From contig JAGNLM010000001.1 of the NCBI GenBank assembly GCA_017999615.1, positions 614,739 to 678,738 on the forward strand: DNA of 64,000 nt, written 5' to 3'. Position numbers and translations under genes: made by a program. Source of the DNA: Gammaproteobacteria bacterium. Its GTDB lineage: Bacteria > Pseudomonadota > Gammaproteobacteria > JAABTG01. The notes below the pieces were generated by a model. The model saw only the letters and a program-made list of their open reading frames with translations, was not told the origin of the DNA and searched no databases. Numbering within the stretch: position 1 is the stretch's first letter; each line of letters begins with the position of its first letter. Shown in pieces: positions 48,235-64,000 of this stretch.

Positions 48235-49599
48235 ATGGCGCTCGATCAGCAACCCCTCGGCCGGCCCCACGAGACGTGCCAGCGCCTTTCGCGCACGGGG
48301 GTGGTCTCCCTGGTCGCGGAGGAGTTGGGCCGCAGCCCGGGCTCGAGCGCCGCGCTCATCCTCCTCGCACTGCGCACCTATCGGGTCATCAACACGACCT
48401 TCGGGTACGGTGCCGGCGAAGAGTTCGTGCAGCAGGTCGGCACCATGCTGCAGGCCCAGTTGCGCCCGGTGGACCGCGTGGCCACGCTGGGCGGCGGAGA
48501 GATCGCGGTCGTCCTGCCGGGGTTGAAGAACCCCGAGCACGCGCTGCTCGCCGTGGCCAAGGTCAGACGCTTGCTGACCGGCAAGTTGAAGGTCGGCACG
48601 GAGCTCTTGGGGATGAATTCGACGCTCGGCGTGGCGGTGTTCCCCGCCCACGCGGGGACCGCCGAAGGCCTGGTGCAGCGCGCCGACGTCGCCCTCGGAA
48701 CGGCGCTCAAGCACGGAAAGCCCTTCGTTCCGGCGACTGCGCTGGAAGGGCAGCCCGACAGCGCACTGCTGCTGGCGCAGGAGCTCGAGGCCGCGATCGC
48801 GGGGAACGACCTCTCGCTGTACTACCAACCGAAGGTGGCGCTGGCCGAGGGCCGCATCTGCGGTGTGGAGGCGCTGAGCCGCTGGCGGAGCCCCACGCGG
48901 GGCTTCGTCTCTCCGGATCGGTTCGTGACGGTCGCCGAGGAGCACGACCTCATCAAGCCGCTCACCCTCTGGTCGCTCAACGTCGCGCTGAAGCACGCGC
49001 GCGACTGGAGCGAGATCTGGCCGGGGGCGAGCGTCGCGGTCAACCTCTCGGCGGCACTCCTGGCGGACCCGGAGATCACCGCGCTCGTCCAGCAGGCGCT
49101 CAACATCTGGGACGTGGTCCCCGACCGCCTCACCCTCGAGGTCACCGAGAGCGCGGTCATGGAGGACCCGGAGCGCAGCCTCGCGACCCTGGGGCGCCTG
49201 CGCGAGGTCGGGGTGGGTCTGGCGATCGATGACTTCGGGACGGGCTACTCGTCGTTCAACTACCTGCGCAAGCTGCCCGTCGACGAGCTGAAGATCGACA
49301 AGTCCTTCGTCCTCGGGATGCTGGGGGACCCGAGCAGCGCCAAGATCGTGAAGGCCGTCGTGGACCTGGGCCACACGTTCGGGCTGAAGATCGTCGCCGA
49401 GGGCGTGGAAGACGCCGACACGGTGCAGGCGCTCACCGAGCTCGGCTGTGATTGCGGACAGGGCTACCACTACGCACGCGCCCTGCCCGCCGAGGAGATG
49501 GCGCAGTGGCTCGTCTCACCCCGCAGCGGACTCATGCGCAGTGCGCCGGCGAGCCCGGAGCGGCTCACTCGATGCCGAGCAGCTCCACGTCGAAGATGA
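48235..49599 (+). CDS. degenerate-GGDEF / EAL domain protein (c-di-GMP phosphodiesterase candidate)
   Basis: N-terminal GGDEF-like fold with the signature degenerated to GGGEI; intact EAL motifs (EALSRW, DDFGTGYSS, KIDKSFV, E..E). Confidence 0.8.
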   Translation: MALDQQPLGRPHETCQRLSRTGVVSLVAEELGRSPGSSAALILLALRTYRVINTTFGYGAGEEFVQQVGTMLQAQLRPVDRVATLGGGEIAVVLPGLKNPEHALLAVAKVRRLLTGKLKVGTELLGMNSTLGVAVFPAHAGTAEGLVQRADVALGTALKHGKPFVPATALEGQPDSALLLAQELEAAIAGNDLSLYYQPKVALAEGRICGVEALSRWRSPTRGFVSPDRFVTVAEEHDLIKPLTLWSLNVALKHARDWSEIWPGASVAVNLSAALLADPEITALVQQALNIWDVVPDRLTLEVTESAVMEDPERSLATLGRLREVGVGLAIDDFGTGYSSFNYLRKLPVDELKIDKSFVLGMLGDPSSAKIVKAVVDLGHTFGLKIVAEGVEDADTVQALTELGCDCGQGYHYARALPAEEMAQWLVSPRSGLMRSAPASPERLTRCRAAPRRR

Positions 49600-50311
49600 G
49601 CGTCTCGTCCGGCCCGATGACCCCGCCCGCACCGGCGTGGCCGTAGGCGAGGTCGGAAGGCACGAAGAGCTGCCAGCGTGAGCCGACCGGCATCCGGGTG
49701 AGGGCCTGCTGCCAGCCCTCGATCACCTGGCCGACGCTGAGTACGGTGGGCTCCCCGCGCCGGTAGGAGCTGTCGAACTCCGTACCGTCGATGAGGGTCC
49801 CGGCATAGTGCACCCGCACCTGGTCGGTGGCCTGGGGTACCGGCCCGGTGCCGGCCTTGACCACGCGGTACTGCAGGCCCCCCGGAAGCTCCACCACGTC
49901 GGGGTTGTTGCGGTTCGCCGTGAGGAATGCCGCCCCCTCGCTGCGGTTGCGCTCCGCCTCGGCGAGTCCCGCCTGGCCCTGTTTCGCCTCGAACTGGCGC
50001 AGCACGTTCTCGCGGTCGCCCGCGGAGAGCCGCGGCGGCGAGCCGGCCGCGCCGTCCTGTACCCCTCGTGCCAGTACGGAGGCATCCAGGGGCAGCGCCT
50101 CGCGCCGCAGTTGCTCCCCCAGCTGGTACCCGATGGTGTAGCTGAGGCGACGGGCGTCGGTGTCGAGCCGCGGGGCCTCGCCACTCGGCGCACTCCCGGC
50201 CGCAGACGGGGTGTTCCCTGCGGCGGGGGGTGGCGCGCCGTCCCCGCACCCGGCGAGGACGGCGGCGAACAGGGTGGGCAGTGCCCGGCGAGCGAGCGTC
50301 AGTCGAGACAC
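49565..50311 (-). CDS. fkpA: FKBP-type peptidyl-prolyl cis-trans isomerase (FkpA/FklB-like), lipoprotein
   Basis: Lipobox LAGCG; C-terminal FKBP domain (VHYAGTLIDGTEFDSS, IEGWQQAL, GPDETLIFDVELLGI); start set at VSRLTL. Confidence 0.8.
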   Translation of the reverse strand: MSRLTLARRALPTLFAAVLAGCGDGAPPPAAGNTPSAAGSAPSGEAPRLDTDARRLSYTIGYQLGEQLRREALPLDASVLARGVQDGAAGSPPRLSAGDRENVLRQFEAKQGQAGLAEAERNRSEGAAFLTANRNNPDVVELPGGLQYRVVKAGTGPVPQATDQVRVHYAGTLIDGTEFDSSYRRGEPTVLSVGQVIEGWQQALTRMPVGSRWQLFVPSDLAYGHAGAGGVIGPDETLIFDVELLGIE

Positions 50312-50360: not shown

Positions 50361-51161
50361 TCAACAGCCCTCGTTCACGATCAATCCCCCACCGCCGGCC
50401 GGTGCCGCGGGTGCCGCCGGGGCTGCGGGAGCCGTGGGCGCAGCGGGCGCGGCCGGTGCCGCGGGCGCAATCGGGGCAGCCGGGGCCGCCGGTGCGGCGG
50501 GAGTGGGCGCCTCGAGCGGTGCGACCGGCGGGGTGAAGGCGGCCGCCGGCGCAGAGGGCAGGGCCGCAGAGGCGGGTGGCGTCGGTGCCTGTGCGGAGGC
50601 GGCTGCCTCCGCGACCCTCACGAAGCCGCTCGTGCGTGCCTGGGCCCACTCGGCGGATTCGCGGCAGGCCGCCGCGAGCCGCTTGCCGTCGCCCGGATCG
50701 CGCGCCCCGAGGGCCGTTGCCTGACCCAGGTGGGCGAGCCAACCCCGGTAGCCGCCGTCGAGCGAATAGGCCTCGATGCCGGCGAGGCGCAGCAGCACCG
50801 CAGCCTGTGCCCCGGAAGAGGCCTCCTCCCCGTACACCACGACCACGCCCCCTTTGCCAAGGCGCTCGGCGCCCGCCCGGCTCACGGCCTCCGGGAGCGG
50901 CATGTGCTCCGCGCCCCGGATGGGCCCCGCGTCGAACTCGGAGTGGGTGCGCAGGTCCACGAGCCGCAGGGCGCGATTTCCCGCGGCGACCCAGTCCGAG
51001 AGCTGCTGCGCTGTCAGCCGGTACTCCCCCTGGGCCACGCCGGCCGCGACCGCGCCGAGAGAGGGGGCGGCGGAGGCCACCGGGGCCCGCTCACAGCCGG
51101 CCAGGGGGGTGCTCGCCAGGGCCGCGGCCAGGGCTGCGATGCGGAAGGCCTTTGCGTTCAT
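50361..51161 (-). CDS. rhodanese-fold lipoprotein lacking the catalytic Cys, with (PAA)n arm and C-terminal Cys
   Basis: Lipobox LAGCE; rhodanese fold (LRLVDLRTHSEFDAGPIRGAEH...VVVVYGEEASSGAQAA) in which the active-site Cys position is Gly; C-terminal PAAPAAPAAPIAPAAP...GGGGLIVNEGC. Start set at MNAKAF. Confidence 0.65.
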   Translation of the reverse strand: MNAKAFRIAALAAALASTPLAGCERAPVASAAPSLGAVAAGVAQGEYRLTAQQLSDWVAAGNRALRLVDLRTHSEFDAGPIRGAEHMPLPEAVSRAGAERLGKGGVVVVYGEEASSGAQAAVLLRLAGIEAYSLDGGYRGWLAHLGQATALGARDPGDGKRLAAACRESAEWAQARTSGFVRVAEAAASAQAPTPPASAALPSAPAAAFTPPVAPLEAPTPAAPAAPAAPIAPAAPAAPAAPTAPAAPAAPAAPAGGGGLIVNEGC

Positions 51162-51169
51162 GGTCTCGT

Positions 51170-52180
51170 TCACTCCCGAGTTGAGTGGAGCCGCTCCAGC
51201 CACCGCGCGTCGTGCTCCTGGGCGTACTGCTGGTAGGCGGTGCGCTGTCCGATCTCCACGGTGATCTCGCGCAACAGGTATCCGCCCACGAGCACGAGGA
51301 GCGGTGCGGCGAGGAACCAGAGGCAGATCCCCCTCAGCTCGAGCACCTCGAGCCCGAGCGGCACCAGGAGCCCCAGGCCCACGAACAGGACCCAGAAGGC
51401 CAGCGCCTGCTCGCCGAAGAACACCTCGCGGGCGGCCTCCACCTGGACCGCGCTGCCCGTCGCGAGGCTCACCAGCAGGAGGGCGACGAGCACGAGCTCG
51501 GCCAGGATGAGGCCGATGTCGATGCGGGTGAAGAGGGTCTTCTCCTCGTGGTGGAAGCGGGCCGCGAGGACGATGAGCGCCGCCGCGGTGGAGAGCCCCG
51601 ACACGAGGAAGAGCGGCCCGAGGACGCCGGAGTTCCAGAAGGGCCGGGCGTTGAAGGCGCTCAACAGGATCCCGGTGTAGACCCCGAGCGCGGCGCCGGA
51701 GACGAGGGTCGCCGCCGCGATGGGGCGGCGTGTCCGCTCGGCCGCATCGATCAGGGCGGACATGCCGGGCACCCGGGCCGCCTGGGCGGCGAGCGCGGGA
51801 TAGCCGGCCCGCAGGCTTGCGAGGATGAGGGCGATGCTGGCCGGGTAGACGAGGAGGAGGAACCAGGCGCCCCAGGACATGGGCGAGGTCGGCTCGAAGG
51901 TGGTGTAGAAGCGGTAGACGTAGAGCTTGTGGGAGAGGTCGAGGAACAGGAACAGCATCCCCGCGGAGAGCACCAGGGGGGCCAGCAGGATCGCCTGCCG
52001 GCCGGCGAAGGGCGACTGCTCCTCGCGCCGGGTGAGCACGATGACCGCGGCGAATACCATGAGCCCGGCGGTGAGCCCCCCGAGGTAGAGGTAGAGCGGG
52101 ATCTCCCAGCCCCAGACGGAGAGCACCGGGTCGATGCCGGGGTTGTGGCGCAGCGTGACGAGCAGCTCTTCGGTGGCCAT
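51170..52180 (-). CDS. NrfD/PsrC-family integral membrane quinol-interacting subunit
   Basis: Eight or more TM helices and the conserved W-x-x-P.YLYLGG N-terminal motif of PsrC/NrfD/DmsC-family anchors. Confidence 0.8.
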   Translation of the reverse strand: MATEELLVTLRHNPGIDPVLSVWGWEIPLYLYLGGLTAGLMVFAAVIVLTRREEQSPFAGRQAILLAPLVLSAGMLFLFLDLSHKLYVYRFYTTFEPTSPMSWGAWFLLLVYPASIALILASLRAGYPALAAQAARVPGMSALIDAAERTRRPIAAATLVSGAALGVYTGILLSAFNARPFWNSGVLGPLFLVSGLSTAAALIVLAARFHHEEKTLFTRIDIGLILAELVLVALLLVSLATGSAVQVEAAREVFFGEQALAFWVLFVGLGLLVPLGLEVLELRGICLWFLAAPLLVLVGGYLLREITVEIGQRTAYQQYAQEHDARWLERLHSTRE

Positions 52181-52723
52181 CTAGGTGAGGTAGTACACGT
52201 TGGGCTGGTTGCCGGTCTCCGGGAGCAAGACCTTCCAGGGGCGGGTCGCCAGCAGGCGGCTCACCGTGCTCGCGGGGTCGTCGAGCACGCCGAAGTGCAT
52301 GCAGTGCGTGGGGCAGGTCGCGACACACGCCGGGTCGAGTCCGCGCTCCACGCGGTGCGCGCAGAAGGTGCACTTGTCCACGTAGCCGTCGGGGCGCATC
52401 ACCAGGCGCGCGTCGTAGGGGCAGGCCGCGATGCAGGCCTTGCAGCCCGTGCACTTCTCGGGTGCCACCAGCACGATGTTGGTGTCGCCCCAGAAGTGGC
52501 TCGCGCCGGTGGGGCAGGTGTACACGCAGGTGGCATGCGAGCAGTGGTTGCAGCGCTCGCTGCGAAACTCTGTGCGGAGCTCGGGGTAACGGCCGTGGGT
52601 GGCCTCGACGACCCAGTCACGGTTCAGGCCGTCGGGGACGCGGTTCTCGGTCTTGCAGGCGACCACGCAGTCCCCGCAGCCGATGCACAGCCGGGTGTCG
52701 ATCACCATTGCGTAGCGGGTCAC
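52181..52723 (-). CDS. 4x[4Fe-4S] ferredoxin-type subunit (PsrB/DmsB-like)
   Basis: CIGCGDCVVACK, CNHCSHATCVYTCP, CTGCKACIAACP, CTFCAHRVERG...CVATCP clusters. Confidence 0.85.
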   Translation of the reverse strand: MTRYAMVIDTRLCIGCGDCVVACKTENRVPDGLNRDWVVEATHGRYPELRTEFRSERCNHCSHATCVYTCPTGASHFWGDTNIVLVAPEKCTGCKACIAACPYDARLVMRPDGYVDKCTFCAHRVERGLDPACVATCPTHCMHFGVLDDPASTVSRLLATRPWKVLLPETGNQPNVYYLT

Positions 52724-54966
52724 GCCGGCGTGTCCTCCGCCATCACGGTCACGAAATTCGCACGCATGCCCGTGCCGCCCATCAGCGGGTCGACCTTCAC
52801 CCGCGTCATCAGGCCCGTGTCGTCAGCCCCGGCCCCGCGGGCGAGGTTGAGCCCGGGCGCGGTGTGGCCGAAGCCGTGGGCGAGGTACACGCAGTCGGGG
52901 CGGATCCGCTCGGTGACGCGCACGCGCACCGGCAGGCTCACCGCGCCGTCCTGGTTCTTCAGGCGCACCCGTTGCCCGCTCGCGAGGCCGCGCGGACGGG
53001 CGGCGTCCGGGTGCACCCACAGGGTGTTCTCCGGCATCAACTGGAAGAGCAGCGGGTTGTTGCCGGTGCGCCCGAAGGTGTGGGCGGGCGCGCGGCCGTA
53101 GACGAGGCGCAGGAAGCCAGCGGGCGTCTCCTCGGGCGGGGTGTAGCGGGGCAGGGGGTCGAGCCCGGCCTTCGCGAGCTCCGTGGAATGGAGCTCGATC
53201 TTGCCCGTCGGTGTCCGGAAGCGCACCGCCTGTCCCGGCGTGAAGTACGCTGCGGTCTTGCGCGGGAAGCGCTTGAGCCCCACGCGCTGCATCTCCGCGA
53301 GGGAACTGCCGACCTGCTGCAACTGCCAGTCCAGCACCTCCGCGTAGTCTTGCCACGGGAACCAGGCGCCGAGCCCCAGGCGGTGGCCCAGCTCGCGCGC
53401 GATCCACCAGGCCGGCTTCGTCTCGTAGCGGGGGGCTAGCGCAGGCATGCGCAGGGCGAGGGAGGGCTCGCGCTCGGGGGCGTTGCGCAGCTCGTCGTAG
53501 CGCTCCAGGTAGGTGCACTCGGGCAGGACGACGTCCGCGTACCCCGTCACCTCGGCGGGCTGCACGTCCACGACGACGAAGAGGTCCAGTTTCTGCGAGG
53601 CCTCCTCGAGCTTGCCGGTGACCGCGGGGATGCTGAGTGGAAGGTTCGTGCCGTAGACGATCCAGCCCCGATAGTAAGGCCGCTCACCCACCGAGGCGTC
53701 GATGACGGCGTTGGTGACGTCGGCGTCGGCGAACGGGAACCCCCCGCGCCGGGCCTGGAGGTCCGCCGCCTTCGACTTGGGGTAGGGCGGCGTCGGGTAT
53801 TCCGGCAGGCTCACCTTCTCCGGCGCGTAGAAGCCGCCCGGCCGGCCCCAGGACCCGAGAAGCGCGTTCAGGATGGCGATGGCCCGGCTGCGCTGGGTGT
53901 CGTCCCCGTACCACGTGACGTGGCGGCCCGGGTGCACCAGGGTCGCGGGGGCGTGCCGCGCCATCTCGCGGGCGGTCTCGCGGATCACCTGCGGGTCGAT
54001 GCCCGTCTCGAGCCAGGCCCACTCGGGGGTGAACGGCTCGACGTGCCGGGTCAGCTCGGCGAGGCCGTGGCAGTAGCGCTGGACGTAGTCGCGGTCGTAG
54101 AGCCCCTCGCCCACGATGACGTGCGTCCAGGCGAGCAGGAGCGCCAGATCGGTGCCCGGGCGGATCGGCAGCCAGTACCGGGACTTCGCGGCGGCGACCG
54201 AGAACCTCGGGTCGACCGTGATGACGCTGGCACCGGCCTCGATCGCCCCGATGAAGTCCTGCACCTGCCCGTTGTGCAGGTTCTCCCCGAGGTGCGAGCC
54301 GATCAGCACGATGCAGCGCGAGCGTGCCATGTCGGTGCGCTCGGGGGAGCCGAGCAGCTCCCCGAAGGTCAGCCGGAAGCCGACGTCGCGCGGACCCCGA
54401 CACTGGGCGAAGGAGGGCGCGGCGTAGGTGTCCGCGCCATAGGCCCGCAGCAGGTGTCGGAAGAAGGCCCCGCCGGAGCCGTGGCTGAAGAGCGCGACCC
54501 GCTCGGGGCCGTGCTCCCTCGCGATCCGCTGCAGGCGCTCGGCGATGTAACCGAGCGCTTCGTCCCAGGAGACGGGCCGGAAGCGCTGCTGCCCGGGCTT
54601 CCCTTCGCGCAGCAGCGGCTGGCGCAGCCGGCTCGGGTCGTCCCAAGCCCCCGGTCCGGCGGTGCCCCGGGTACACAAGCGCCCGCCCGAGTGCGGGTCG
54701 TCCGGGTGGCCGCTGACCTTCCAGGGCCGCCCGTCGTGCACGTGGGCGTAGCCCGCGCACCTCCAGAAGCACACCTCGCAGACGGTCGGGGTGACCACCG
54801 CCTCCGAGTCCCGGGGCACGCGGGGCTCGACCCCGCAGCCGGGGAGCGCCCCCGTGGCGGCACCGAGTCCGGCGGCGCCGGATATCCGGATGAAGTCACG
54901 CCGTTTCAAGTTCTTCGGGCTCTCGAAAAAGGTCGGAGATCGATGGGGTGCCCCGCAAGGGGACAC
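52720..54966 (-). CDS. Tat-exported molybdopterin (Mo-bisPGD) oxidoreductase catalytic subunit, Psr/Phs/Sre-like
   Basis: Twin-arginine signal KRRDFIRISGAAGLGAATG; N-terminal FeS-binding CEVCFWRCAGY....C...; 748 aa, the size of polysulfide/thiosulfate reductase A subunits. Confidence 0.8.
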   Translation of the reverse strand: MSPCGAPHRSPTFFESPKNLKRRDFIRISGAAGLGAATGALPGCGVEPRVPRDSEAVVTPTVCEVCFWRCAGYAHVHDGRPWKVSGHPDDPHSGGRLCTRGTAGPGAWDDPSRLRQPLLREGKPGQQRFRPVSWDEALGYIAERLQRIAREHGPERVALFSHGSGGAFFRHLLRAYGADTYAAPSFAQCRGPRDVGFRLTFGELLGSPERTDMARSRCIVLIGSHLGENLHNGQVQDFIGAIEAGASVITVDPRFSVAAAKSRYWLPIRPGTDLALLLAWTHVIVGEGLYDRDYVQRYCHGLAELTRHVEPFTPEWAWLETGIDPQVIRETAREMARHAPATLVHPGRHVTWYGDDTQRSRAIAILNALLGSWGRPGGFYAPEKVSLPEYPTPPYPKSKAADLQARRGGFPFADADVTNAVIDASVGERPYYRGWIVYGTNLPLSIPAVTGKLEEASQKLDLFVVVDVQPAEVTGYADVVLPECTYLERYDELRNAPEREPSLALRMPALAPRYETKPAWWIARELGHRLGLGAWFPWQDYAEVLDWQLQQVGSSLAEMQRVGLKRFPRKTAAYFTPGQAVRFRTPTGKIELHSTELAKAGLDPLPRYTPPEETPAGFLRLVYGRAPAHTFGRTGNNPLLFQLMPENTLWVHPDAARPRGLASGQRVRLKNQDGAVSLPVRVRVTERIRPDCVYLAHGFGHTAPGLNLARGAGADDTGLMTRVKVDPLMGGTGMRANFVTVMAEDTPA

Positions 54967-55006
54967 CCCAAGTGTTGCACATCTTCGCCAGTCCGTCGCT
55001 CGCCCC

Positions 55007-56308
55007 TCACTCGAAGACGTAGCTGCCGTCGCCCTTGATGGTGAGCGCGTCGTTCAGGAAGCGCACCTGGTCGTAGCCGAGCTTCTTCAGGAACTGGTAC
55101 GCCATCTCGGAGCGGGATCCGTTGGTGCAATAGGCGACGATGGGACGGTCCTTCGGCAGCGACGAGGGATCCGCCTGCAGCTTGTCGAGGGGCAGGTGCG
55201 TCGAGCCCTTCAGCACACCCATCGCGGCCTCCTTGGCGTCGCGCACGTCCAGCAGCAGCGCGTTGCCGGGCGCGGCGACCACTTTCGCGAACTCCTCGGT
55301 CGACAGCGAGCCTTCCTTCGGCTTCTTCGTGTAGGCGATCTGGGTCGGGGCTTCGCCGGTGACCGTCGGCCGGCCCTCCTTCACCCACGCCTGGTAGCCG
55401 CCCCCGAGGATCGTGGCGTTCTTGTAGCGGTACTTCTTCAGCTCCGCGAACGCGGTGAGGACGTCCTCGCCGTTGTCCGTGTTGCCATAGACCACGATGG
55501 GCGCCCCCATGTCGGCCACGCCCGGGAGCCTCGCCGGTGCCTTCTCGGCGATGAATTTCTGGGTCATCGCGGGGAACGCCGCGGACTCGATCGACACCGC
55601 CCCCGGCAGGTGCCCTGCGGCCACCTCCGCCTTCGGGCGCACGTCGATGACGACGTGATGCGGGTCGAGGTGGGCCGCGACCCACTCGGGTACCGAGGTC
55701 ACCGGCTTGCCGGCCTTCTTCCACGCGGGAATGCCGGCCTGGAAGCCCTTCAGGTTGGTGTGGCCGGCCTTGGTGGCGATCTCGATGGAGCTGCCCGTGT
55801 AGGGACAGGTGGGACCACCACAATAGAAGATGACCATCGTGCCCTTGTCGGTGGGCAGCTTGTCCAGGTTGTTCGGCAGGTCCTTCCAGAAGATCTGGAT
55901 GGCGCCCGGGATGTGCCCTTCGAGGTACGGTCCCTTCGGGCGGGCGTCGACTAGCAGGAACGGGTCCTTGCCGGCGCGGATCCGCTCGAGCTCCTCCATG
56001 CTGATCTCGGCCCCGGGCGGAAGGGCGAACACCACCTTGGTGATCCGGGTGGCCGGCTGACCGGGCGTGTGCTCGACCTTGATCAGGTCCGGGGTGCCGA
56101 GCTCCTTGATGCCCGCCGCGTTGACGAACTCGGTCTGCGGACCGAAGAGCACGACCTGGGACTTTCCGCTCACCTCGACCTGGATGGTGTTGGCCTTGTT
56201 CGAGATGTCTTCGATGCGGCCCTCCACGGTGTCGGCCCGGGCGGTCGGGACCAGGGCGAGCAGGGCGGCGAGCAGGGCGGAGAGGGGCGTCGGGCGCGGG
56301 ATCGACAT
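55007..56308 (-). CDS. periplasmic multi-rhodanese protein (three rhodanese domains, the middle one Cys-less)
   Basis: Signal peptide; rhodanese 1 active loop FYCGGPTCPY, rhodanese 2 with YGNTDNGED replacing the Cys loop, rhodanese 3 YCTNGSRSEMAY; unknown N-terminal domain of about 110 aa. Confidence 0.75.
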   Translation of the reverse strand: MSIPRPTPLSALLAALLALVPTARADTVEGRIEDISNKANTIQVEVSGKSQVVLFGPQTEFVNAAGIKELGTPDLIKVEHTPGQPATRITKVVFALPPGAEISMEELERIRAGKDPFLLVDARPKGPYLEGHIPGAIQIFWKDLPNNLDKLPTDKGTMVIFYCGGPTCPYTGSSIEIATKAGHTNLKGFQAGIPAWKKAGKPVTSVPEWVAAHLDPHHVVIDVRPKAEVAAGHLPGAVSIESAAFPAMTQKFIAEKAPARLPGVADMGAPIVVYGNTDNGEDVLTAFAELKKYRYKNATILGGGYQAWVKEGRPTVTGEAPTQIAYTKKPKEGSLSTEEFAKVVAAPGNALLLDVRDAKEAAMGVLKGSTHLPLDKLQADPSSLPKDRPIVAYCTNGSRSEMAYQFLKKLGYDQVRFLNDALTIKGDGSYVFE

Positions 56309-56463
56309 GAGCGGATACCTCGCAGGTGGCTGAGTTCCCGGTGGGGCACGCTGCGCGGGGCAACACCACCAACCCGGGGGGCCCGAAGGCCCCCCTGAGT
56401 ATAGGCCCTGACGACGACCGTCCGCGATGAGTATCTGGTTGTTTTAACTAAGATTAATATCGT

Positions 56464-57768
56464 TCACTCGAGGACGTAGCTGCCATCGCCCTTGATCACC
56501 AGTGACTCGTTCAGGAAGCGGACCTTCTCGAAGCCGTTCTTCTTCAGGAAGTCGTACGCCATCTCCGAGCGAATGCCGTTGCTGCAGTAGGTGATGACGG
56601 GCTTGTCCTTCGCCAGGACGGACGGGTCGGCCTGAAGGCGGTCGATGGGGATGTGCAGCGCTCCCGGCAATTTGCCGCCTGCCACCTCCTTGTCCTCGCG
56701 CACGTCCACCAGGATCGTGTCGCCCCGGTTCTCGACCAGCTTCGCGAACTCGTCCCGGGACACCGCGCCGGGCTTCAGCTTCTTCACGTAGCTGATCTGC
56801 GTCGTGGCCGCCCCCGCCTCGATCGGCAGGCCCTGCTTCACCCATTCGGGGTAACCCCCCTTCAGGATGGCGGCGTTCTTGTACTGGTACTTCTTCAGCT
56901 CCCCGTAGGCCGTGAGCACGTCCTGCCCGTTCTCGGTGTCCCCGTACACGACGATGGGAGCCGCCATGTCGGCGACACCCGGCAACCGGGCCACCTGCTT
57001 CTCGGCGACGAACTTCTGGGTCATCGCAGGGAACTCCGCAGCCTCCATCGCCACGGCCCCTTTGACATGACCTTTGGCCGATTCGGCCTTCGCGCGCACG
57101 TCGATCACCACGGTGTTCGGGCCGAGACCGGCGGCGACCCACGAGGGGCTGGCGACGACCGGCTTGCCGGCCTTCTTCCAGGCGGGAATTCCGGCCTGGA
57201 AACCCTTCAGGTTCGTGTGGCCGGCCTTGGCCGCGATCTCGATGGACTGCCCCGTGTACGGGCAGGTCGGGCCGCCGCAGTAGAAGATGAGCATCACCCC
57301 CTTGTCGGCCGGCAGCTCGTTCAGGCGGTTCGGCAAGTCCTTCGGGAAGATGTTGATGCTGCCCGGCAGGTGCCCCGTGACATATTGCTTCTCGGGACGG
57401 GCGTCCACGAGGACGAAGGGTTCCTTGCCCGCGCGAATCGCCTCGAGCTCCTGCAGGCTCACCTCCGCTCCGGGTGGCAGGCCGAAGACCACCTTGGTGA
57501 TCCTGGTCGCGGGCTTGCCGGGGGCGTACTCGACCTCGATCAGGTCCGGCGAGCCGAGGTCCTTCACGCTGGCCGCGTTCACGTACTGCGTCTCCGGTCC
57601 GAAGAGAACCGTGACCGGCGGCTGGCCTTCGGGGGTCAGCTTGATGGTGGACCCCTTGTTGGAGATGTCGTCGATGCGGCCCTTGACGGTGTCCGCACCA
57701 GCGCCGGCCGACAGCGCGAGGCCGCCGGTCAAGACGAGGACGAGGCAGGTGATTCGCCTGTGGGACAT
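56464..57768 (-). CDS. paralog of the multi-rhodanese protein (tandem duplicate, about 70% identical by eye)
   Basis: Same architecture: FYCGGPTCPY, YGDTENGQD, YCSNGIRSEMAY; collinear with the downstream copy. Confidence 0.75.
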   Translation of the reverse strand: MSHRRITCLVLVLTGGLALSAGAGADTVKGRIDDISNKGSTIKLTPEGQPPVTVLFGPETQYVNAASVKDLGSPDLIEVEYAPGKPATRITKVVFGLPPGAEVSLQELEAIRAGKEPFVLVDARPEKQYVTGHLPGSINIFPKDLPNRLNELPADKGVMLIFYCGGPTCPYTGQSIEIAAKAGHTNLKGFQAGIPAWKKAGKPVVASPSWVAAGLGPNTVVIDVRAKAESAKGHVKGAVAMEAAEFPAMTQKFVAEKQVARLPGVADMAAPIVVYGDTENGQDVLTAYGELKKYQYKNAAILKGGYPEWVKQGLPIEAGAATTQISYVKKLKPGAVSRDEFAKLVENRGDTILVDVREDKEVAGGKLPGALHIPIDRLQADPSVLAKDKPVITYCSNGIRSEMAYDFLKKNGFEKVRFLNESLVIKGDGSYVLE

Positions 57769-57858
57769 GCTCCTATCCTCCTCTGGTTCTGCGTTTGCCT
57801 ATGGGATATTGCCTCCCTAACTATGACCCAAGTGTATTGCCTATGTAAATTTCGTTCG

Positions 57859-59835
57859 CTAGGGGAGGAGGCAGTTTGCGGTGGGGTCGGTCGGCGTGGG
57901 TGGGCAGACGAAGGCGAGCACCCCGCCGTCAGGTCGGACCTCGATGCGCAGGTCCTGCAGGCGAGAGAGCACGTCCATCCCGAGCACCGGCTTCCAGTGG
58001 CTGTCCGCGGAGGCACAGGCGAGCGCCCGCACGCCGGGCAACACGCAGGAACCGATGCGCAGTCCTTCGAGGAGGTAGTGCCTTGCCTCGGCGCCACCAC
58101 CGTGGATGAGCTCCACGTTCACTTCCCCGAGGGGCAGCGCCCGGTTGCGCCCGCACATGCGCTGCAGGTGCGGGTGGGGGAGCACGGTGACGGCCGAGCC
58201 GGTGTCGAGCAGCAACGAGAGGTCCGGGTCCTGCACGCAGCCCACGAGCCGGACCGGGACGTGCAGCAGTCCCTCGCGCAGGGTGAGGGGCACGCGCTCG
58301 GGACCGTTGCGCTCGGCAGGGGCCTCGCCGGGCGGGGGAGCGGCCGACGGAGCGGACGGGGGAGCGGACGGGGGAGCGGACGGGGTAGCGGGCGGGGGAG
58401 CGGGCGGCGTGCCGTGGCAGCTCCCGCAGGCCCGCGCCGGCCCCACCGTGTGCGGGCTGATGGGCACGAGCTCGCGCCACGACCGCACCGCCGCGGGCCC
58501 GCCAGCGGGAGGCGGGAACTCCGCGCTCATGGCCATGCCGGGGACGAAGGGTGCGATGCGCCCGTCGGGTCGCTCCCCGAGGTTCGGCACGACGGGCTGC
58601 ATCTTCCCGCGGTCCGCGAGCCAGCGCCCGGGGGTCAGCCGGCGCTCGTGATGGTCCCACTGCTCGGCGCCCGGCTCGAAGCGCACGTGGCAGCCCTCGC
58701 ACTGGGGCGCCCACTGGCTGTGGCAGGCCTCGCAGGTGAGGCGAGCGTGCTCGCGCGCGTATGGGTGGGCGGGCATCCGCGCCTTTCCGCCCTCGCGGTG
58801 GCAGTCCTCGCAGACGGGACCGGCCTTCCCCGCCAGGCCCATCACCTGGGTCCCGCGGTGACAGTCGACGCAGCGCATTCCCGCCCGGTGGTGGGCGTCG
58901 CCCGGGACGCGCTCCACCAGTCGGCCGTCGGGGAGCCGCCCCAGGCGTGACCGGTCCACCCGTGCGAGCGCGGACTCGTCCACCTCGGCGAGGCCGGAGT
59001 AGGCGAGGGCCATGCGCGTGGCGCGGGAGTGACAGCCGAAGCAGCGCTCGTCCCGCACCCGGGCGGAGAGCTCGGCGTGCGCACCCGCGGGGTAGTCGTT
59101 CAGGTGGCAGGCGAGGCACCCGCCCCCGCGGTCGCGCACCGGGTCGAGCGCGTGCCGGGCCTTGGGGTGCGCGATGTGGCAACTCGCGCAGAGCTTGCGA
59201 AAGAGCGAGTCGGCCGGTGACTGGCCGAGGCTGGCGACGCCCGCGGCCGCCGCCGGGGCGGACTTCCGATCGCCTGCGGGGGCCTCGCCAAAGGCCTGCC
59301 GGTTGCCCGTCACCATCCCGCGCAGGGTCGCCATGGGACTCGCGCGCACACCGGCCAGCTCTGCCGGGTGACAGCGCCCGCAGGTCCGCTCCGCGTTCTC
59401 CAGGTTCCCCGGGAAGGCGACGAGCCCGGCGTGCGCGAGCTCCCGTGTCGCGGCCGCGGCGTCGCCGGCGTGGCAGGCGGTGCAGTCTCCCGCAGCGAAG
59501 GCATGTCCCGCCGGGTGGCCCTGGTCGCGGACGGGGTGGCAGCCGAGGCATCCGGGGACGGCGGCTGCGGCCACCGCTTCGAGGCCGAGAAGGGCCGTGA
59601 GGGGCAGGGCGGTGAGGGCCAGGGGCGTCAGCACGAGGGGCGCCAGGGTGAGGAGCGCGAGGGCCAGGAGCGGCGCGCGCACGCTCCCGCCGGCGCGGCG
59701 GTCCGACCGGCCCGGGCTCCCCGCAAGCGGGGCCACGAATGGAGCCGCGCTTCGCCTCCCCGCAGATTTGCGCCAGATCAAGTGGCCTGCATCTTGGTCA
59801 AGGACCTGGTGGACGCACTCCGGTTCGTCACTCAT
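57859..59835 (-). CDS. undecaheme c-type cytochrome fused to a C-terminal retropepsin-like (clan AA) aspartic protease domain
   Basis: 11 CxxCH motifs; Pro/Ser/Ala linker PPAPPPATPSAPPSAPPSAPSAAPPP; C-terminal domain with LLLDTGSAV and VLGMDVL retropepsin signatures; hydrophobic low-complexity N-terminus. Alternative in-frame GTG start at 59682. Confidence 0.65.
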   Translation of the reverse strand: MSDEPECVHQVLDQDAGHLIWRKSAGRRSAAPFVAPLAGSPGRSDRRAGGSVRAPLLALALLTLAPLVLTPLALTALPLTALLGLEAVAAAAVPGCLGCHPVRDQGHPAGHAFAAGDCTACHAGDAAAATRELAHAGLVAFPGNLENAERTCGRCHPAELAGVRASPMATLRGMVTGNRQAFGEAPAGDRKSAPAAAAGVASLGQSPADSLFRKLCASCHIAHPKARHALDPVRDRGGGCLACHLNDYPAGAHAELSARVRDERCFGCHSRATRMALAYSGLAEVDESALARVDRSRLGRLPDGRLVERVPGDAHHRAGMRCVDCHRGTQVMGLAGKAGPVCEDCHREGGKARMPAHPYAREHARLTCEACHSQWAPQCEGCHVRFEPGAEQWDHHERRLTPGRWLADRGKMQPVVPNLGERPDGRIAPFVPGMAMSAEFPPPAGGPAAVRSWRELVPISPHTVGPARACGSCHGTPPAPPPATPSAPPSAPPSAPSAAPPPGEAPAERNGPERVPLTLREGLLHVPVRLVGCVQDPDLSLLLDTGSAVTVLPHPHLQRMCGRNRALPLGEVNVELIHGGGAEARHYLLEGLRIGSCVLPGVRALACASADSHWKPVLGMDVLSRLQDLRIEVRPDGGVLAFVCPPTPTDPTANCLLP

Positions 59836-59881
59836 GATTCCCTCACCGTCTTTGGGGTGATTTTCTTCAACAATAACCTGG

Positions 59882-61195
59882 ATGAATCGGATGGAGGTCG
59901 TCGTGCGCAGCCGCTCACTCGTCCTGACCCTCGCTCTCGTGCTGATCGGAGGTTTCCCGGCGCATTCGGCGTACGCCGCCCGTACGACGGCGGACGACGA
60001 GGCCGAAGAGCCGTTCCAGGGAAGGACCGTTCAGTATTATCGCCCGGAAGCTTGCAAGAAGTGCCACGAGGAAATCTACAACCAGTGGAAGTCCTCGATG
60101 CACGCGAAGAGCACGGCGCTGAAGGACCCCATCCACGAGGCGATGTACCAGATGGAGGTCGGCTCGCCGACGGAGGAGGGCGTCAAGCACAAGAAGTCTC
60201 AGACCTATCCGGTCTGCCTGCAGTGCCACGCGCCGGTCGCGGCGATGGAGAAGAAGACCAAGCTTGACGAGAAAGAGGCCTACAGCAACGGCGTCGGGTG
60301 CGTGGTGTGCCACTCCTTCGCCCACTTCAAGGGCATCAAGAAGCCGGACGGCAAGTACCAGCTCGGCCAGCTGGCCTATCAGGTCGACACCGAGCAGCTC
60401 TACGGGCCCTCCGGCATCTCCTACACCAAGAAGCGGGTGCCCAAAGGGTCTACGTGGCCGATTCCGGTCAACCACCCCCAGCCCATCAAGGGCAGCAAGG
60501 CGTCGCTCTTCAAGAGCAACGACCTCTGCATGGGATGCCACGACCAGCGCAACAACCCGAAGGAAGTGCCCCTCTGCATGACCGGCCCCGAGTACGAGAA
60601 GGGCAAGGCCTTCATCAACTGCCAGGCCTGCCACATGGCGCCGACCGAGGTGGTGAACAAGGACGGCGAGAAGGTCAAGGTGTTCGACCACACCATGGCC
60701 GGTGGGCACCACGACAAGATGATCACCCAGGGTGTCGCGTTGAGCATGGACGTGAAGCGCGAGGGGGACAATTTCAAGGTCGACATCACGCTGCGTAACC
60801 GCCTGCCGCACGCCTACCCGACCGGCGCGCCGTTCCGCAACGCCATCGTGCGGGTGGCCGCGTACGACAAGGACGGGAAGCTGCTGTGGCAGAACTACGA
60901 GAAGCACCCCTCCAAGGACGACCCCAAGGCCTTCCTCCTCCTCGCCCTCGGCAAGGACGGCAAGCCGGTGATGCCACCCGAGGCCACCGAGATCCTGAAC
61001 GACTCGCGCCTGCAGCCGGACGAGACCCGCGCGCTCGAGTACAGCTTCACCGCCGCGGGCGTCGGCATCGTGCGCACCGAGCTGCTCTACCACCTGCTGA
61101 CGCCGCCGGTGCTCGAGATGTTCGGGGACAAGCTGCCGGAAGAAGTGAAGAAGGCAAGGGTCGCGGCCTCGGCCGAGGAACGCTTCGAAAGCTGA
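59882..61195 (+). CDS. periplasmic pentaheme c-type cytochrome (NrfA/ONR/MccA-superfamily-like)
   Basis: Signal peptide ...AHSAYA; five CxxCH motifs (CKKCH, CLQCH, CVVCH, CMGCH, CQACH); N-terminal CKKCHEEIYNQWKSSMH and CQACHMAP resemble motifs of multiheme reductases. Confidence 0.7.
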   Translation: MNRMEVVVRSRSLVLTLALVLIGGFPAHSAYAARTTADDEAEEPFQGRTVQYYRPEACKKCHEEIYNQWKSSMHAKSTALKDPIHEAMYQMEVGSPTEEGVKHKKSQTYPVCLQCHAPVAAMEKKTKLDEKEAYSNGVGCVVCHSFAHFKGIKKPDGKYQLGQLAYQVDTEQLYGPSGISYTKKRVPKGSTWPIPVNHPQPIKGSKASLFKSNDLCMGCHDQRNNPKEVPLCMTGPEYEKGKAFINCQACHMAPTEVVNKDGEKVKVFDHTMAGGHHDKMITQGVALSMDVKREGDNFKVDITLRNRLPHAYPTGAPFRNAIVRVAAYDKDGKLLWQNYEKHPSKDDPKAFLLLALGKDGKPVMPPEATEILNDSRLQPDETRALEYSFTAAGVGIVRTELLYHLLTPPVLEMFGDKLPEEVKKARVAASAEERFES

Positions 61196-61305
61196 GGACC
61201 CCGGCGGCGAAACGCGGTTCCCGGGGCGGGCGGGGCGCCAGCACGCCCGCCCCGTGAGAGGCCGCAGCGGTCGGTCGAGCCCCACGGTATCGGTGGTCAG
61301 GAGGA

Positions 61306-62028
61306 TTGACGATGGTCTCGCTTGGAACATGGCTTCGGTCGCGCGCCCTGTGGAGCGGAGCCTGCCTGGTGGCCCTGCTGCCCCTCGCAGCGGTGGGTGA
61401 CGGGGCGAGCGACGAGGTGAGCGACAAGCCCGCGGTCGCCCGACCGGCGCCCCGCACCCTGGAGACGGTCCACCCGGAGGCGAACCCCGCCAAGACAGTG
61501 GACGGCCAGGCGCCGTTCGAGGAAGCCCCGCTGTTCCGGGTCGTCACCCGGAAGAAGGACTCGGACATGCACCCCTGCGGGGATTGCCACGACGAGACGC
61601 TGTCGGACTTCAAGCCGCGGGACCTGCAGCGGCCCCACGACGACTTCAAGCTCGAGCACGGGCTGCACGGCCGCGGCGAGTTCTGGTGCTTCACCTGCCA
61701 TCGCGTGAAGGGCACGGGCGGCCTGAAGACGATGGAGAGCGAGCGGCTCGGGTTCGACGACGCCTACGTCATCTGTTCCCAGTGCCACGCCCAGGAAGCC
61801 CGGGACTGGACCCACGGCGCCCACGGCAAGCGCGTGGGGGGCTGGGAGGGAGACCGCACGCTGCTCAGTTGCACCGTCTGCCACTTCCAGCACCGCCCGA
61901 AGATGGACCCGCGCAAGGCCGAGGAGCCTCCGCCGGTGCGCCGGGGCCTCCCTCGCCAGGACACCAATCCCCACGAGCCGTTGCCGGTGTGGGAGCGCCA
62001 CGGGGCCCAGGGCCCGGTGACCAAGTGA
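61306..62028 (+). CDS. periplasmic tetraheme c-type cytochrome
   Basis: Signal peptide; four CxxCH motifs (CGDCH, CFTCH, CSQCH, CTVCH); about 240 aa. Confidence 0.65.
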   Translation: MTMVSLGTWLRSRALWSGACLVALLPLAAVGDGASDEVSDKPAVARPAPRTLETVHPEANPAKTVDGQAPFEEAPLFRVVTRKKDSDMHPCGDCHDETLSDFKPRDLQRPHDDFKLEHGLHGRGEFWCFTCHRVKGTGGLKTMESERLGFDDAYVICSQCHAQEARDWTHGAHGKRVGGWEGDRTLLSCTVCHFQHRPKMDPRKAEEPPPVRRGLPRQDTNPHEPLPVWERHGAQGPVTK

Positions 62029-62082
62029 CCGGGTAACTCGGCGGCACCCAAACATCCGGATCGAACACGTACACGGACAACG

Positions 62083-63018
62083 TTGGCCATGAGCGACCAC
62101 GACCAGCACGACGACGCACCCGACCGCGCCCGCCGGCGCTTCCTGCAGCGGGTCGGTACCGTGGCAGCCGCAGCCGCGGCGGCCCCGGCGAGCGAGGGGG
62201 CCTGGGGCGGCAAGACCCTCGAGGACGCCCTGGGGGAGTTCTTCCAGGACAACTACCGGCGCATGACGCCGGAAGAGGTGAAGGAGGCGATCGGGCGCAT
62301 CGAGCGCCGGGCGAAGCGCCTGTACGGCGTGGACATCACCGTCGGCAACGAGCCGCCGCTGCCCGGGGTCGTCTTCGGGTACGCGATCAACGTCTCCAAG
62401 TGCCGCGGATACCGGGACTGCGTTCGCGCCTGCGGCGAGGAGAACAACCAGAGCCTCGACATGCAGTACATCCGGGTGCTGCAGCTCGACCAGGGCAGCC
62501 TGAACTTCGAGCAGGCCGAGCACTACTACCCGGGCGACCAGGTCCCGGTCGAGGGCAAGCACTACGTCCCGGTGCAGTGCCAGCAGTGCGACAACCCCCC
62601 GTGCGTGAAGGCCTGCCCGGTCGGCGCGACCTGGAAGGAGCCCGACGGCGTCGTGGTGGTCGACTACGACTGGTGCATCGGTTGCCGGTACTGCATGGCG
62701 GCCTGCCCTTACCAGGCCCGCGTGTTCAACTGGGGCGCGCCGGACCTGCCGGCCGAGCGCATCAACCCCAAGACCCACTACCTCGGCAACCGCCCGCGGC
62801 AGGCCGGATCGGTCGAGAAGTGCCACTTCTGCCTGCAGCGCACGCGCGTCGGCAAGCTGCCCGCCTGTCAGGAGGCCTGCCCGACCGGGGCACGGGTGTT
62901 CGGGAACCTGCTCGATCCGGAGAGCGAGATCCGCTACGTGCTCGAGCACAAGGTCGTCTTCCGGCTGAAGGAGGACGTGGGGACCGAGCCGAAATTCTGG
63001 TACTACCGGGACGTCTGA
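62083..63018 (+). CDS. Tat-exported 4x[4Fe-4S] ferredoxin-type protein (NrfC/HybA-like)
   Basis: Twin-arginine RRRFLQRVGTVAAAAAAA; Cys clusters CRGYRDCVRACGEEN, CQQCDNPPCVKACP, CIGCRYCMAACP, CHFCLQRTRVGKLPACQEACP. Confidence 0.8.
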   Translation: MAMSDHDQHDDAPDRARRRFLQRVGTVAAAAAAAPASEGAWGGKTLEDALGEFFQDNYRRMTPEEVKEAIGRIERRAKRLYGVDITVGNEPPLPGVVFGYAINVSKCRGYRDCVRACGEENNQSLDMQYIRVLQLDQGSLNFEQAEHYYPGDQVPVEGKHYVPVQCQQCDNPPCVKACPVGATWKEPDGVVVVDYDWCIGCRYCMAACPYQARVFNWGAPDLPAERINPKTHYLGNRPRQAGSVEKCHFCLQRTRVGKLPACQEACPTGARVFGNLLDPESEIRYVLEHKVVFRLKEDVGTEPKFWYYRDV

Positions 63019-63031
63019 GGAGGGGTGAGGC

Positions 63032-64000
63032 GTGGCCCTGTTTCGATTCCTTTCCAATGGAGTGCGGCATGCCTTCCGGGGCTCGCCGACCTACTGGGCG
63101 TGGCTGGGATTCCTGGTGCTGGTGATCGCGAACGGGCTGTGGGCCTATTCGCACCAGCTGTCCGAGGGGCTCATCGCCACGAACATGAGCAGCCAGGTCT
63201 CCTGGGGCTTCTACATCGCGAACTTCACCTACCTGGTGGGGGTCGCCGCGGCGGCCGTGCTGCTCGTCATTCCCGCCTACATCTTCCATCGCCAGGACGT
63301 GAAGGACGTGGTGCTGCTCGGCGACACCATGGCGGTCGCCGCGGTGATCATGGCGATCCTGTTCGTGGTGGTCGATCTGGGGCGGCCGGACCGCATCTGG
63401 CATCTGCTGCCGGGGGTTGGCATCTTCAACTTCCCGACCTCGATGCTGGCCTGGGACGTGGTGGTGCTCTCGGGCTACCTGCTGCTGAACCTCGGGATCT
63501 CGTTCTACATCGTCTACAGCCACTACCGCGGCCGCCAGCCGGTGCTGCGCTATTACTTCCCCTTCGTGCTGCTGGCGATGTTCTGGGCGATCTCCATCCA
63601 CACCGTGACGGCCTTCCTGTTCTCCGCGAACAGCGGCCGGCCGTTCTGGTCGAACCCGCTGCTCGCGCCGCGGTTCATCGCCTCTGCGTTCGCCTCGGGA
63701 CCCGCGCTCAGCATCATCGCCCTCACCATCGTGCGCAAGACGACGCGCTACCCCGTGCAGCAGAGCGTGATCGACATGCTCTCGGTGGTGATGACGGTGG
63801 CGCTCCAGATCACGCTCTTCTTCGTGGGCGCGGAGCTCTTCACCGAGTTCTACAACGAGGGGCACCACGCGGCGTCCGCGCGCTACCTGTTCCTCGGCCT
63901 GCACGGGCACGGCGTGCTGGTGCCCTGGATCTGGACGGGCATCGGGATGCTCGCGGTGGCGGTCTTCATCCTGATGGTCCACCCGCTTCGCCGGCAGCCG
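63032..64000 (+). CDS. NrfD-family integral membrane protein (partial; continues past the window end)
   Basis: Frame not listed in the ORF track because no stop occurs in the window. GAGGAGGGG ribosome-binding site then a GTG at 63032; the hand translation VALFRFLSNGVRHAFRGSPTYWAWLGFLVLV... shows many TM helices typical of NrfD/PsrC. Confidence 0.6.
   Translation, partial: MALFRFLSNGVRHAFRGSPTYWAWLGFLVLVIANGLWAYSHQLSEGLIATNMSSQVSWGFYIANFTYLVGVAAAAVLLVIPAYIFHRQDVKDVVLLGDTMAVAAVIMAILFVVVDLGRPDRIWHLLPGVGIFNFPTSMLAWDVVVLSGYLLLNLGISFYIVYSHYRGRQPVLRYYFPFVLLAMFWAISIHTVTAFLFSANSGRPFWSNPLLAPRFIASAFASGPALSIIALTIVRKTTRYPVQQSVIDMLSVVMTVALQITLFFVGAELFTEFYNEGHHAASARYLFLGLHGHGVLVPWIWTGIGMLAVAVFILMVHPLRRQP

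Follow-up and report, generated by a model that had tools for sequence, protein, structure and literature searches.

The 64,000-nucleotide stretch analysed here (hereafter the window; contig JAGNLM010000001.1 of the Gammaproteobacteria bacterium assembly GCA_017999615.1, forward-strand positions 614,739 to 678,738) carries, immediately after the psrC gene of a psrABC-like operon, a gene for a rhodanese-fold lipoprotein whose last residue is a cysteine, Cys266. Judging from sequence comparison, we conclude that this protein belongs to a widespread, unnamed family of pseudo-rhodaneses that are genetically linked to PsrABC, anchored at the N-terminus, and tipped by a cysteine at the end of a tether, the terminal Cys being the only cysteine conserved throughout. 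We suggest, giving the proposal nearly even chances, that the protein is a membrane-tethered fourth component of the Psr system whose tail thiol would carry sulfane sulfur, a design like that of SoxY but without homology to SoxY. Sulfur carriers with C-terminal Cys arms and rhodanese helpers of Psr are both known already; what is surprising to a specialist in sulfur metabolism is the relocated thiol together with the strict linkage to psrC.

The rhodanese domain had been recognised in an initial annotation of this DNA, and the assignment is secure: the protein matches PF00581 with 50.7 bits (cutoff of 22.2, E = 2.5e-13), this is its sole Pfam domain, and all 52 members of the family alignment A1 match the same model. 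AlphaFold2, run on the window protein with a 52-sequence alignment, gave a mean predicted local distance difference test (pLDDT) score of 80.9, with values above 90 for the rhodanese core (residues 40–150). Foldseek placed the model in the α/β rhodanese fold, with many solved rhodaneses (3TP9, 3NHV, and 3ILM among them) matched at a probability of 1.00, and neither Foldseek nor the profile searches found anything beyond generic rhodaneses. Similarly, NCBIfam gave only generic rhodanese matches below threshold (GlpE: 25.6 bits against a cutoff of 102), and ExtH, GlpE, PspE, TsoB, and the other curated families were rejected on the grounds that the similarity is sub-threshold and of a generic rhodanese kind. 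Pfam and NCBIfam hold no dedicated model for the terminal-Cys family, only the generic Rhodanese one.

As read from the alignments, the domain is catalytically dead. In the stretch VVVVY-G111-EEASSG, Gly111 sits in the slot of the catalytic Cys and the CxxGxR[ST] signature is missing; in the profile alignment, the family consensus ‘lySed..AAqaa’ pairs with ‘vYCRTGGRSAIAA’ of PDB entry 3TP9. The active-site loop has the canonical length and is acidic (G-E-E-A-S-S-G), not cationic. The loss of the catalytic Cys claimed in the initial annotation is therefore confirmed by both the profile and the family alignments, and it is a property of the family: the Cys is missing in 86 of the 88 aligned members, the position being taken by Ser in 48, Gly in 17, Ala in 14, Asp in 6, and Thr in 1, with Cys in the remaining 2.

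The N-terminus was also correctly called a lipoprotein signal. Residues 20–23 (L-A-G-C) fit the lipobox pattern [LVI][ASTG][GA]C and lie behind a hydrophobic h-region, as read directly from the sequence, and residues 1–23 are, on this reading, an N-terminal membrane tether. In the family alignment, most members have a lipobox and the remainder have an N-terminal hydrophobic anchor; in some relatives, an uncleaved signal-anchor helix replaces the lipobox.

At the other end of the protein, the rhodanese domain is separated from the terminal Cys by a long Ala/Pro-rich linker (35 Ala and 21 Pro among the 71 residues from 185 to 255), which AlphaFold2 predicts to have no secondary structure (pLDDT 58–68, rising to 76 in the block with the conserved short motif F-T-P-P-V-A-P; residues 209–215, nucleotides 50517–50537). 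A Pro/Ala repeat of some 60 residues had been proposed here, and a Pro/Ala-rich linker of ∼70 residues is indeed present, but a strict PAA-type run accounts for only ∼35 of them (residues 221–255, nucleotides 50397–50501). The DNA of this run is an imperfect 9-bp repeat (∼7–12 units, 69–75% matches, nucleotides ∼50393–50503, Tandem Repeats Finder). Variation in repeat number, also proposed, finds a counterpart in the relatives P0005 and P0006, whose only differences are one substitution and an indel of 29 residues in the linker; slippage is a less convincing cause of such variation, since the DNA repeat is imperfect. The reading frame is open through the repeat in the window, and the tip that follows, GGGLIVNEGC, matches that of orthologues that are 52–61% identical overall. 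In P0001 (a 957-bp ENA contig, 89% identical), the frame is lost inside the GC-rich Pro/Ala repeat and ends in unrelated sequence, from which it appears that sequencing or assembly errors, or genuine frameshifts, arise easily in the repeat. Caution is in order over the number of PAA copies in the window.

The last four residues of the window protein have pLDDT values below 50, and a second member of the family, P0158, modelled with an independent alignment, likewise has a tail with pLDDT below 50. In both members, the tail is thus predicted to hang free and not to dock, in agreement with the flexible arm of the initial annotation. A docked C-terminus, with Cys266 placed in the empty active-site pocket or beside Cys166, was considered and finds no support in either AlphaFold2 run.

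The family was collected by an exhaustive HMMER search with residues 1–190, that is, with the linker and tip excluded; word-indexed protein searches were swamped by the low-complexity linker and gave 7 and 15 matches. Many of the HMMER matches are proteins of 200–280 residues that align from the N-terminus. The initial annotation had proposed looking for the C-terminal Cys in orthologues, and it is kept: 87 of the 114 relatives of single-domain size have a Cys within the last three residues (79 have it as the very last residue and 60 end in EGC), several matches that lack it look truncated or frame-shifted, and it occurs in only 2 of 40 larger multi-rhodanese matches. Five full-length orthologues (P0003–P0007, 52–61% identity) all end in GGGLIVNEGC, with linkers that vary in sequence and length. 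Of 111 non-redundant members chosen for a Cys at position −1 (111 of 111 by selection), 89 have G at −2, 78 have E at −3, and 69 have L at −7, and the consensus of their tips is L-[IL]-[IV]-x-E-G-C-COOH. The region after the domain has a median length of 98 residues (range 5–184), is rich in Ala, Pro, and Gly, and usually contains [FY]xPP[VL]xP and/or DPLGLGLGLG motifs; the motif [FYL]xPP[VLIF] is found in 59 of the 111. We note that the tethers of many members (e.g. P0156–P0160 and L004–L028) contain a repeat of the D-P-L-G-L-G-L-G-L-G-L-G-P type and that (GL)n occurs in 51 of the 111 members, often after [FY]xPP[VL]xP; the window protein has no (GL)n and has PAA repeats instead.

The window protein shows every feature by which we propose to define the family: an N-terminal anchor, a dead rhodanese domain, a disordered linker, an [EG]-G-C end, and a psrC-adjacent gene. 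Public annotation reads ‘rhodanese-like domain-containing protein’ or ‘hypothetical protein’ only, a tblastn search of a plasmid collection gave no match, and full-text literature searches, which did not reach most subscription journals, found no description of the family. An earlier description may therefore exist.

The terminal Cys is not, as had been supposed, unique in the protein, which has three cysteines: C23 (lipid attachment), C166, and C266. Cys166 lies in the first of three helices that AlphaFold2 predicts after the rhodanese domain (residues 156–167, 170–178, and 183–190; means of 10-residue blocks, pLDDT 68–88), in the context AAAC166RESAEW; the motif in the family is A-x-x-C-[YW]-F-x-G-D-Y. 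An equivalent Cys is found in 56 of the 88 aligned members; it is at least 90% conserved in alignment A1 and invariant in alignments A2 and A3. The most frequent number of cysteines per member is three including that of the lipobox, which leaves the typical mature member with two free cysteines. In one subfamily, the internal Cys is shifted a few residues later (ARALxxCP), and in the signal-anchored subfamily with a polybasic tail, there is no internal Cys at all.

The link to psrABC rests on 30 related loci from species-representative genomes, which were found via a 14-sequence subset of the family, a search pattern that biases them towards Proteobacteria with the AAQAAxLLRL motif. The hosts are Ectothiorhodospiraceae, Chromatiaceae, Competibacteraceae, Thiobacillaceae, Nevskiales, Sinimarinibacterium, and unclassified gamma- and betaproteobacteria; a single locus, L011, comes from an isolate (Sinimarinibacterium sp. 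CAU 1509). In 28 of the 30 loci (GTDB), the family gene comes directly after psrC, the exceptions being a contig end and one locus, L012; psrA–psrB are present in 27, and a triple-rhodanese gene precedes psrA in 18. Independent metagenome contigs with other subfamilies show the same linkage (L032: NrfD, then the rhodanese gene; L037: molybdopterin subunit, iron–sulfur protein, NrfD, and the rhodanese gene; L038 and L039: multihaem cytochrome, iron–sulfur protein, NrfD, triple-rhodanese, PsrABC, and the rhodanese gene). Genes of the YeeE/YedE type (PF04143, Sulf_transp) recur nearby in several independent lineages, two of them lying between psrC and the rhodanese gene in L035/L036 and L033, and others preceding psrA in L006 and L026. 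The association of the family gene with psrABC is near-obligatory. In the window, the psrC stop and the lipoprotein ATG are 8 nucleotides apart in different reading frames, a GGGAG lies ∼12 nucleotides 5′ of the ATG, and the gene is probably translationally coupled to psrC. Across the 30 loci, the family protein retains 27–40% identity, against ∼60% for PsrA and ∼80% (70–84%) for PsrB; such fast evolution would be less expected of an enzyme than of a tether or adaptor. The coordinates of the features discussed are collected in the table.

Table. Features of the terminal-Cys lipoprotein gene and of its neighbours in the window
Feature	Position	Strand	Details and basis
Rhodanese-fold lipoprotein gene	50361-51161	-	266 aa, ATG start
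Signal peptide and lipobox, residues 1-23 (...PLAG-C23)	51093..51161	-	Direct sequence read; lipobox/anchor column in family alignment
Rhodanese-homology domain, residues 50-143	50733..51014	-	Pfam PF00581, AlphaFold2, Foldseek/HMM matches to solved rhodaneses
Gly111 codon at catalytic-Cys position	50829..50831	-	Profile alignment to 3TP9, family alignment
Predicted helical extension, residues 156-190, with Cys166 (codon 50664-50666)	50592..50696	-	AlphaFold2, family alignments
Ala/Pro-rich linker, residues 191-255	50397..50591	-	Composition, Tandem Repeats Finder, AlphaFold2
C-terminal tip GGGGLIVNEGC, residues 256-266, Cys266 last	50364..50396	-	Sequence, family consensus, pLDDT
TGA stop right after Cys266 codon	50361..50363	-	True stop by comparison with relatives
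psrC, NrfD-family membrane quinol subunit	51170..52180	-	PF03916, E 1.6e-42
psrB, four-cluster ferredoxin subunit	52181..52723	-	PF13247 and related Fe-S models
psrA/phsA-like molybdopterin subunit, Tat signal KRRDFIR	52720..54966	-	Pfam Molybdopterin, Molydop_binding, TAT_signal
Rhd3a, periplasmic triple-rhodanese	55007..56308	-	Three Pfam Rhodanese stretches, E 7.8e-45
Rhd3b, triple-rhodanese paralogue of Rhd3a	56464..57768	-	434 aa
ExtM-like cytochrome	57859-59835	-	658 aa, 11 CxxCH; NF040943, E 3.5e-39
c554-like 5-haem cytochrome	59882-61195	+	
Small multihaem cytochrome	61306-62028	+	
4Fe-4S protein	62083-63018	+	
FKBP-type peptidyl-prolyl isomerase lipoprotein, lipobox LAGC	49565-~50311	-	GTG start near 50311 likely, GGAGG ribosome-binding site

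A dedicated carrier or adaptor is the simplest reading of a tethered pseudo-rhodanese with a conserved end thiol, linkage to psrABC, and rhodanese and transporter neighbours. In the scheme that we propose, the loading of sulfur, the contact with PsrA, and the direction of the reaction go beyond anatomy, conservation, synteny, and predicted disorder, and we infer them. The rhodanese domain of this pseudo-enzyme would probably have no task beyond docking or scaffolding, with the reactive group relocated to the last residue, Cys266, on a disordered tether of ∼100 residues. First, the tail thiol would take up sulfane sulfur, forming a persulfide or polysulfide, from the active triple-rhodanese proteins encoded upstream or else from free polysulfide, thiosulfate, or stored sulfur. 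The tip, Glu-Gly-Cys-COO−, which would be anionic through the Glu at −3, the free α-carboxylate, and the persulfide anion, could then bring the sulfur to the active-site funnel of PsrA; in the work on Thermus PsrABC, the substrate funnel of PsrA is said to be lined by basic residues. There, the sulfur would be converted to sulfide with electrons drawn from quinol via PsrC and PsrB, a step that may run in reverse in sulfur-oxidising hosts. Because the hosts are mostly sulfur oxidisers, either direction is possible, that is, dark reduction of stored sulfur or oxidation of sulfide to carrier-bound polysulfide. Finally, by analogy with DsrC, Cys166 may resolve the sulfur or park it as a di- or trisulfide.

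A bolder version of this scheme, which we regard as being on the unlikely side, holds that the true substrate of this Psr-type clade is not free polysulfide or thiosulfate but the persulfide or polysulfide on the C-terminal Cys of the carrier. The family would then be a third, independently evolved system of protein-bound sulfur carriage beside SoxYZ and DsrC, in which the rhodanese thiol has in effect left the catalytic loop for the end of a ‘fishing line’ of ∼100 residues. With active rhodaneses, sulfur globules, or YeeE-type transporters as its sources, this line would feed sulfur into the PsrA funnel.

Several observations speak against a sulfur carrier. In L012, the family gene occurs without adjacent psrABC. 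The crystal structure of Thermus PsrABC reportedly has no fourth subunit, which would mean that Psr enzymes need no such partner in principle. A free periplasmic thiol is a target for DsbA, and C166 and C266 could form a plain structural disulfide. One subfamily ends in the polybasic tail KKKKxGC in place of the acidic tip, so mimicry of polysulfide by an anionic tip cannot be general. Lastly, the lipoprotein +2 residue is Glu in the window protein and variable across the family, so that the protein may sit in either the inner or the outer membrane.

Were the proposal of a tethered carrier correct, it would bear on a long-standing puzzle of polysulfide and thiosulfate reductases, namely the route by which zero-valent sulfur, insoluble or unstable as it is, gets to their buried molybdenum site, and on the role of ‘Psr-like’ complexes in sulfur-oxidising bacteria, which is also open. 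A conserved single-thiol carrier encoded after psrC would make substrate delivery to Psr accessible to simple experiments, and it would add to the short list of sulfur carriers a design in which the catalytic Cys of a pseudo-enzyme has shifted to a flexible tail. The signature itself (dead loop, C-terminal [LI][IV]xEGC, and psrC adjacency) could serve as a family model and as a marker for the Psr clade.

An unlikely alternative is a structural or assembly subunit: docked on PsrABC through its pseudo-rhodanese domain, the protein would be fixed in place by the terminal Cys (through a disulfide to a partner Cys or as a ligand to the haem or metal of a neighbouring cytochrome) and would carry no sulfur. 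Tight synteny, probable translational coupling with psrC, the multihaem cytochrome genes that adjoin the cluster, and a domain without its catalytic residues would all suit such a subunit. A disordered linker of 60–180 residues and of variable length would, however, be an odd way to hold a fixed link, neither a partner Cys nor a ligand site came to light, and the cluster is rich in sulfur-transfer proteins (the triple-rhodaneses and YeeE), neighbours that point to sulfur chemistry.

We think it distinctly unlikely that the protein is a redox-switched plug or regulator, in which a C166–C266 disulfide sequesters the tail until reduction, or attack by sulfide or polysulfide, frees it to gate PsrA or to signal sulfur. 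The idea draws on the typical mature member, whose two free cysteines are exactly the C166 equivalent and the terminal one, and on the position of C166 in a moderately confident AlphaFold2 helix beside the domain. However, 14 members, those of the signal-anchored polybasic-tail subfamily among them, have no cysteine but the terminal one, so that the pair is not required for the core function, and AlphaFold2 shows no docking of the low-confidence tail near C166.

It is very improbable that we are dealing with an ordinary degenerate rhodanese-like lipoprotein whose Pro/Ala tail is filler or an assembly artefact and whose terminal Cys is a coincidence. The GC-rich imperfect repeat is error-prone, as the loss of frame in P0001 illustrates, and the public annotation is generic, but the window frame stays open through the repeat to a tip identical to that of orthologues of 52–61% identity. 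Family-wide statistics and synteny rule out coincidence, since the dead site, the terminal Cys, and the psrC linkage recur in dozens of homologues at 27–60% identity. Hardly credible at all is a selenocysteine at the TGA that follows Cys266 (codons TGT TGA), forming a Cys-Sec redox tip like that of TrxR with a short extension, even though NCBIfam models of rhodanese-related selenoproteins exist (TsoB and LYCAU; weak matches): relatives use TGA (20), TAA (5), and TAG (2) after the terminal Cys, the closest full orthologue (L001) has TAG, and translations past the stop are unrelated between loci, from which we conclude that the Cys is the true C-terminus, and read-through was ruled out.

Turning to the neighbours, the minus-strand order in the window is ExtM-like cytochrome, two triple-rhodanese genes, psrA, psrB, psrC, the lipoprotein gene, and an FKBP gene. 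The three psr products make up a PsrABC/PhsABC-type operon, with a Tat-exported molybdopterin subunit, a four-cluster ferredoxin, and an NrfD subunit. PsrA matches Thermus PsrA (2VPW) over its full length (E = 2.6e-204) and the NCBIfam PhsA model with E = 1e-141 (473 bits, below the equivalog cutoff of 694), a score that does not suffice to assign a substrate. The lipoprotein gene had been described as the last of the operon; it does follow psrC directly, but it may not be the last in the transcript, because the FKBP gene lies ∼50 nucleotides downstream on the same strand. The FKBP gene also adjoins in the closest orthologous locus (L001, 80% identity) and does not in more distant loci.

The tandem triple-rhodanese proteins are exported and 433 (Rhd3a) and 434 (Rhd3b) residues long. 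Their N-terminal domain of ∼95 residues has no family match; domain 1 has an unusual FYCGGPTCPYTG loop, domain 2 lacks the Cys, and domain 3 has a canonical YC(T/S)NGxRSE loop. With the motifs FYCGGPTCPYTG and AYCTNGSRSE, Rhd3a has intact catalytic Cys loops and is likely to be the active sulfurtransferase partner. The ExtM-like cytochrome is oddly fused, its C-terminal ∼100 residues matching models of clan-AA retropepsin-like aspartic proteases (PF13975 and TIGR02281). Divergent from this cluster, a plus-strand operon (59882–64000) extends beyond the window, and in L038, a similar module of cytochrome, unannotated gene, iron–sulfur protein, and NrfD is co-linear upstream of the triple-rhodanese, psrABC, and rhodanese genes. 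The co-linearity of both modules in L038 suggests that the divergent operon and the psrABC cluster form a two-module quinone-linked system. The triple-rhodanese and c554-like genes (55000–57999 and 59800–60999) have a G+C content of 0.61–0.67, below the 0.70–0.78 of the psr and cytochrome genes around them, and encode Lys-rich products; they may have a different evolutionary origin. Just past the cluster, a GGDEF-EAL protein is encoded on the plus strand (48235–49599), and EAL-domain homologues lie downstream of the cluster in L008, L022, and L025.

Among described proteins, a possible relative, likened by description only, is P21, an exported 21-kDa rhodanese-like protein of Acidithiobacillus ferrooxidans that is induced by sulfur compounds and shows no rhodanese activity in vitro (PMC6335251). 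In Figure 6 of the same review, rhd genes appear beside tsd, sbp, and doxDA in a cluster for thiosulfate metabolism, and not beside psrABC. ExtH, of the Geobacter ext selenite/tellurite cluster, is also a rhodanese-like lipoprotein in a multihaem-cytochrome respiratory cluster, and an ExtM-like gene is found nearby here. ExtH is, however, tied to a porin–cytochrome conduit and not to psrABC; its model (NF040901) has no match to the window protein and matches 3 of 52 family members with E values of 0.0035 or weaker.

The initial annotation had drawn an analogy with Sud of Wolinella succinogenes (PDB entry 1QXN), a periplasmic rhodanese fold with distant profile similarity (E = 9.8e-5). Sud binds sulfane sulfur and delivers it for polysulfide reductase. 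It is soluble and has a canonical loop Cys, whereas the present family is anchored, has lost the loop Cys, and has its Cys at the end of a tail; a Sud-type sulfurtransferase was ruled out, as the defining catalytic Cys is absent. The closer analogues of Sud are the two upstream triple-rhodanese proteins, and a Sud-like role fits these better because they keep the catalytic Cys. In DsrC/TusE, the C-terminal arm is flexible, bears conserved cysteines, and serves a sulfur redox enzyme as its substrate or product. Two-Cys trisulfide or disulfide chemistry is conceivable for C166 and C266 as well, but DsrC/TusE is cytoplasmic and of another fold, its two cysteines are ∼10 residues apart in the arm compared to ∼100 here, and many members of the present family have the terminal Cys only.

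The other analogy drawn initially, with SoxY, is reasonable. The molybdoenzyme SoxCD is one of the partners of SoxY. The differences are plain: SoxY is a β-sandwich and the present protein a rhodanese, the conserved gene clusters of the loci include no Sox-type neighbour and no SoxZ gene was seen, and the genetic partner is PsrABC, not SoxAX, SoxB, or SoxCD. The arm is ∼100 disordered residues long here and a few residues long in SoxY, and the present protein is membrane-tethered and usually ends in E-G-C-COOH with the Cys last. In SoxY, the sulfur substrate is bound by the Cys of a carboxy-terminal GGCGG swinging arm, and the partner enzymes act on the Cys-bound sulfur (PMC6067878 and PMC5336275). 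Both proteins are periplasmic. SoxY presents a single functional Cys in the Gly-rich extreme C-terminus of a mobile arm, after a short hydrophobic stretch, and the present protein, with its end G-G-G-G-L-I-V-N-E-G-C, may do likewise. A minority of the present family even ends in GGCG, GCG, or CGG, a resemblance that we take to be one of design and not of homology.

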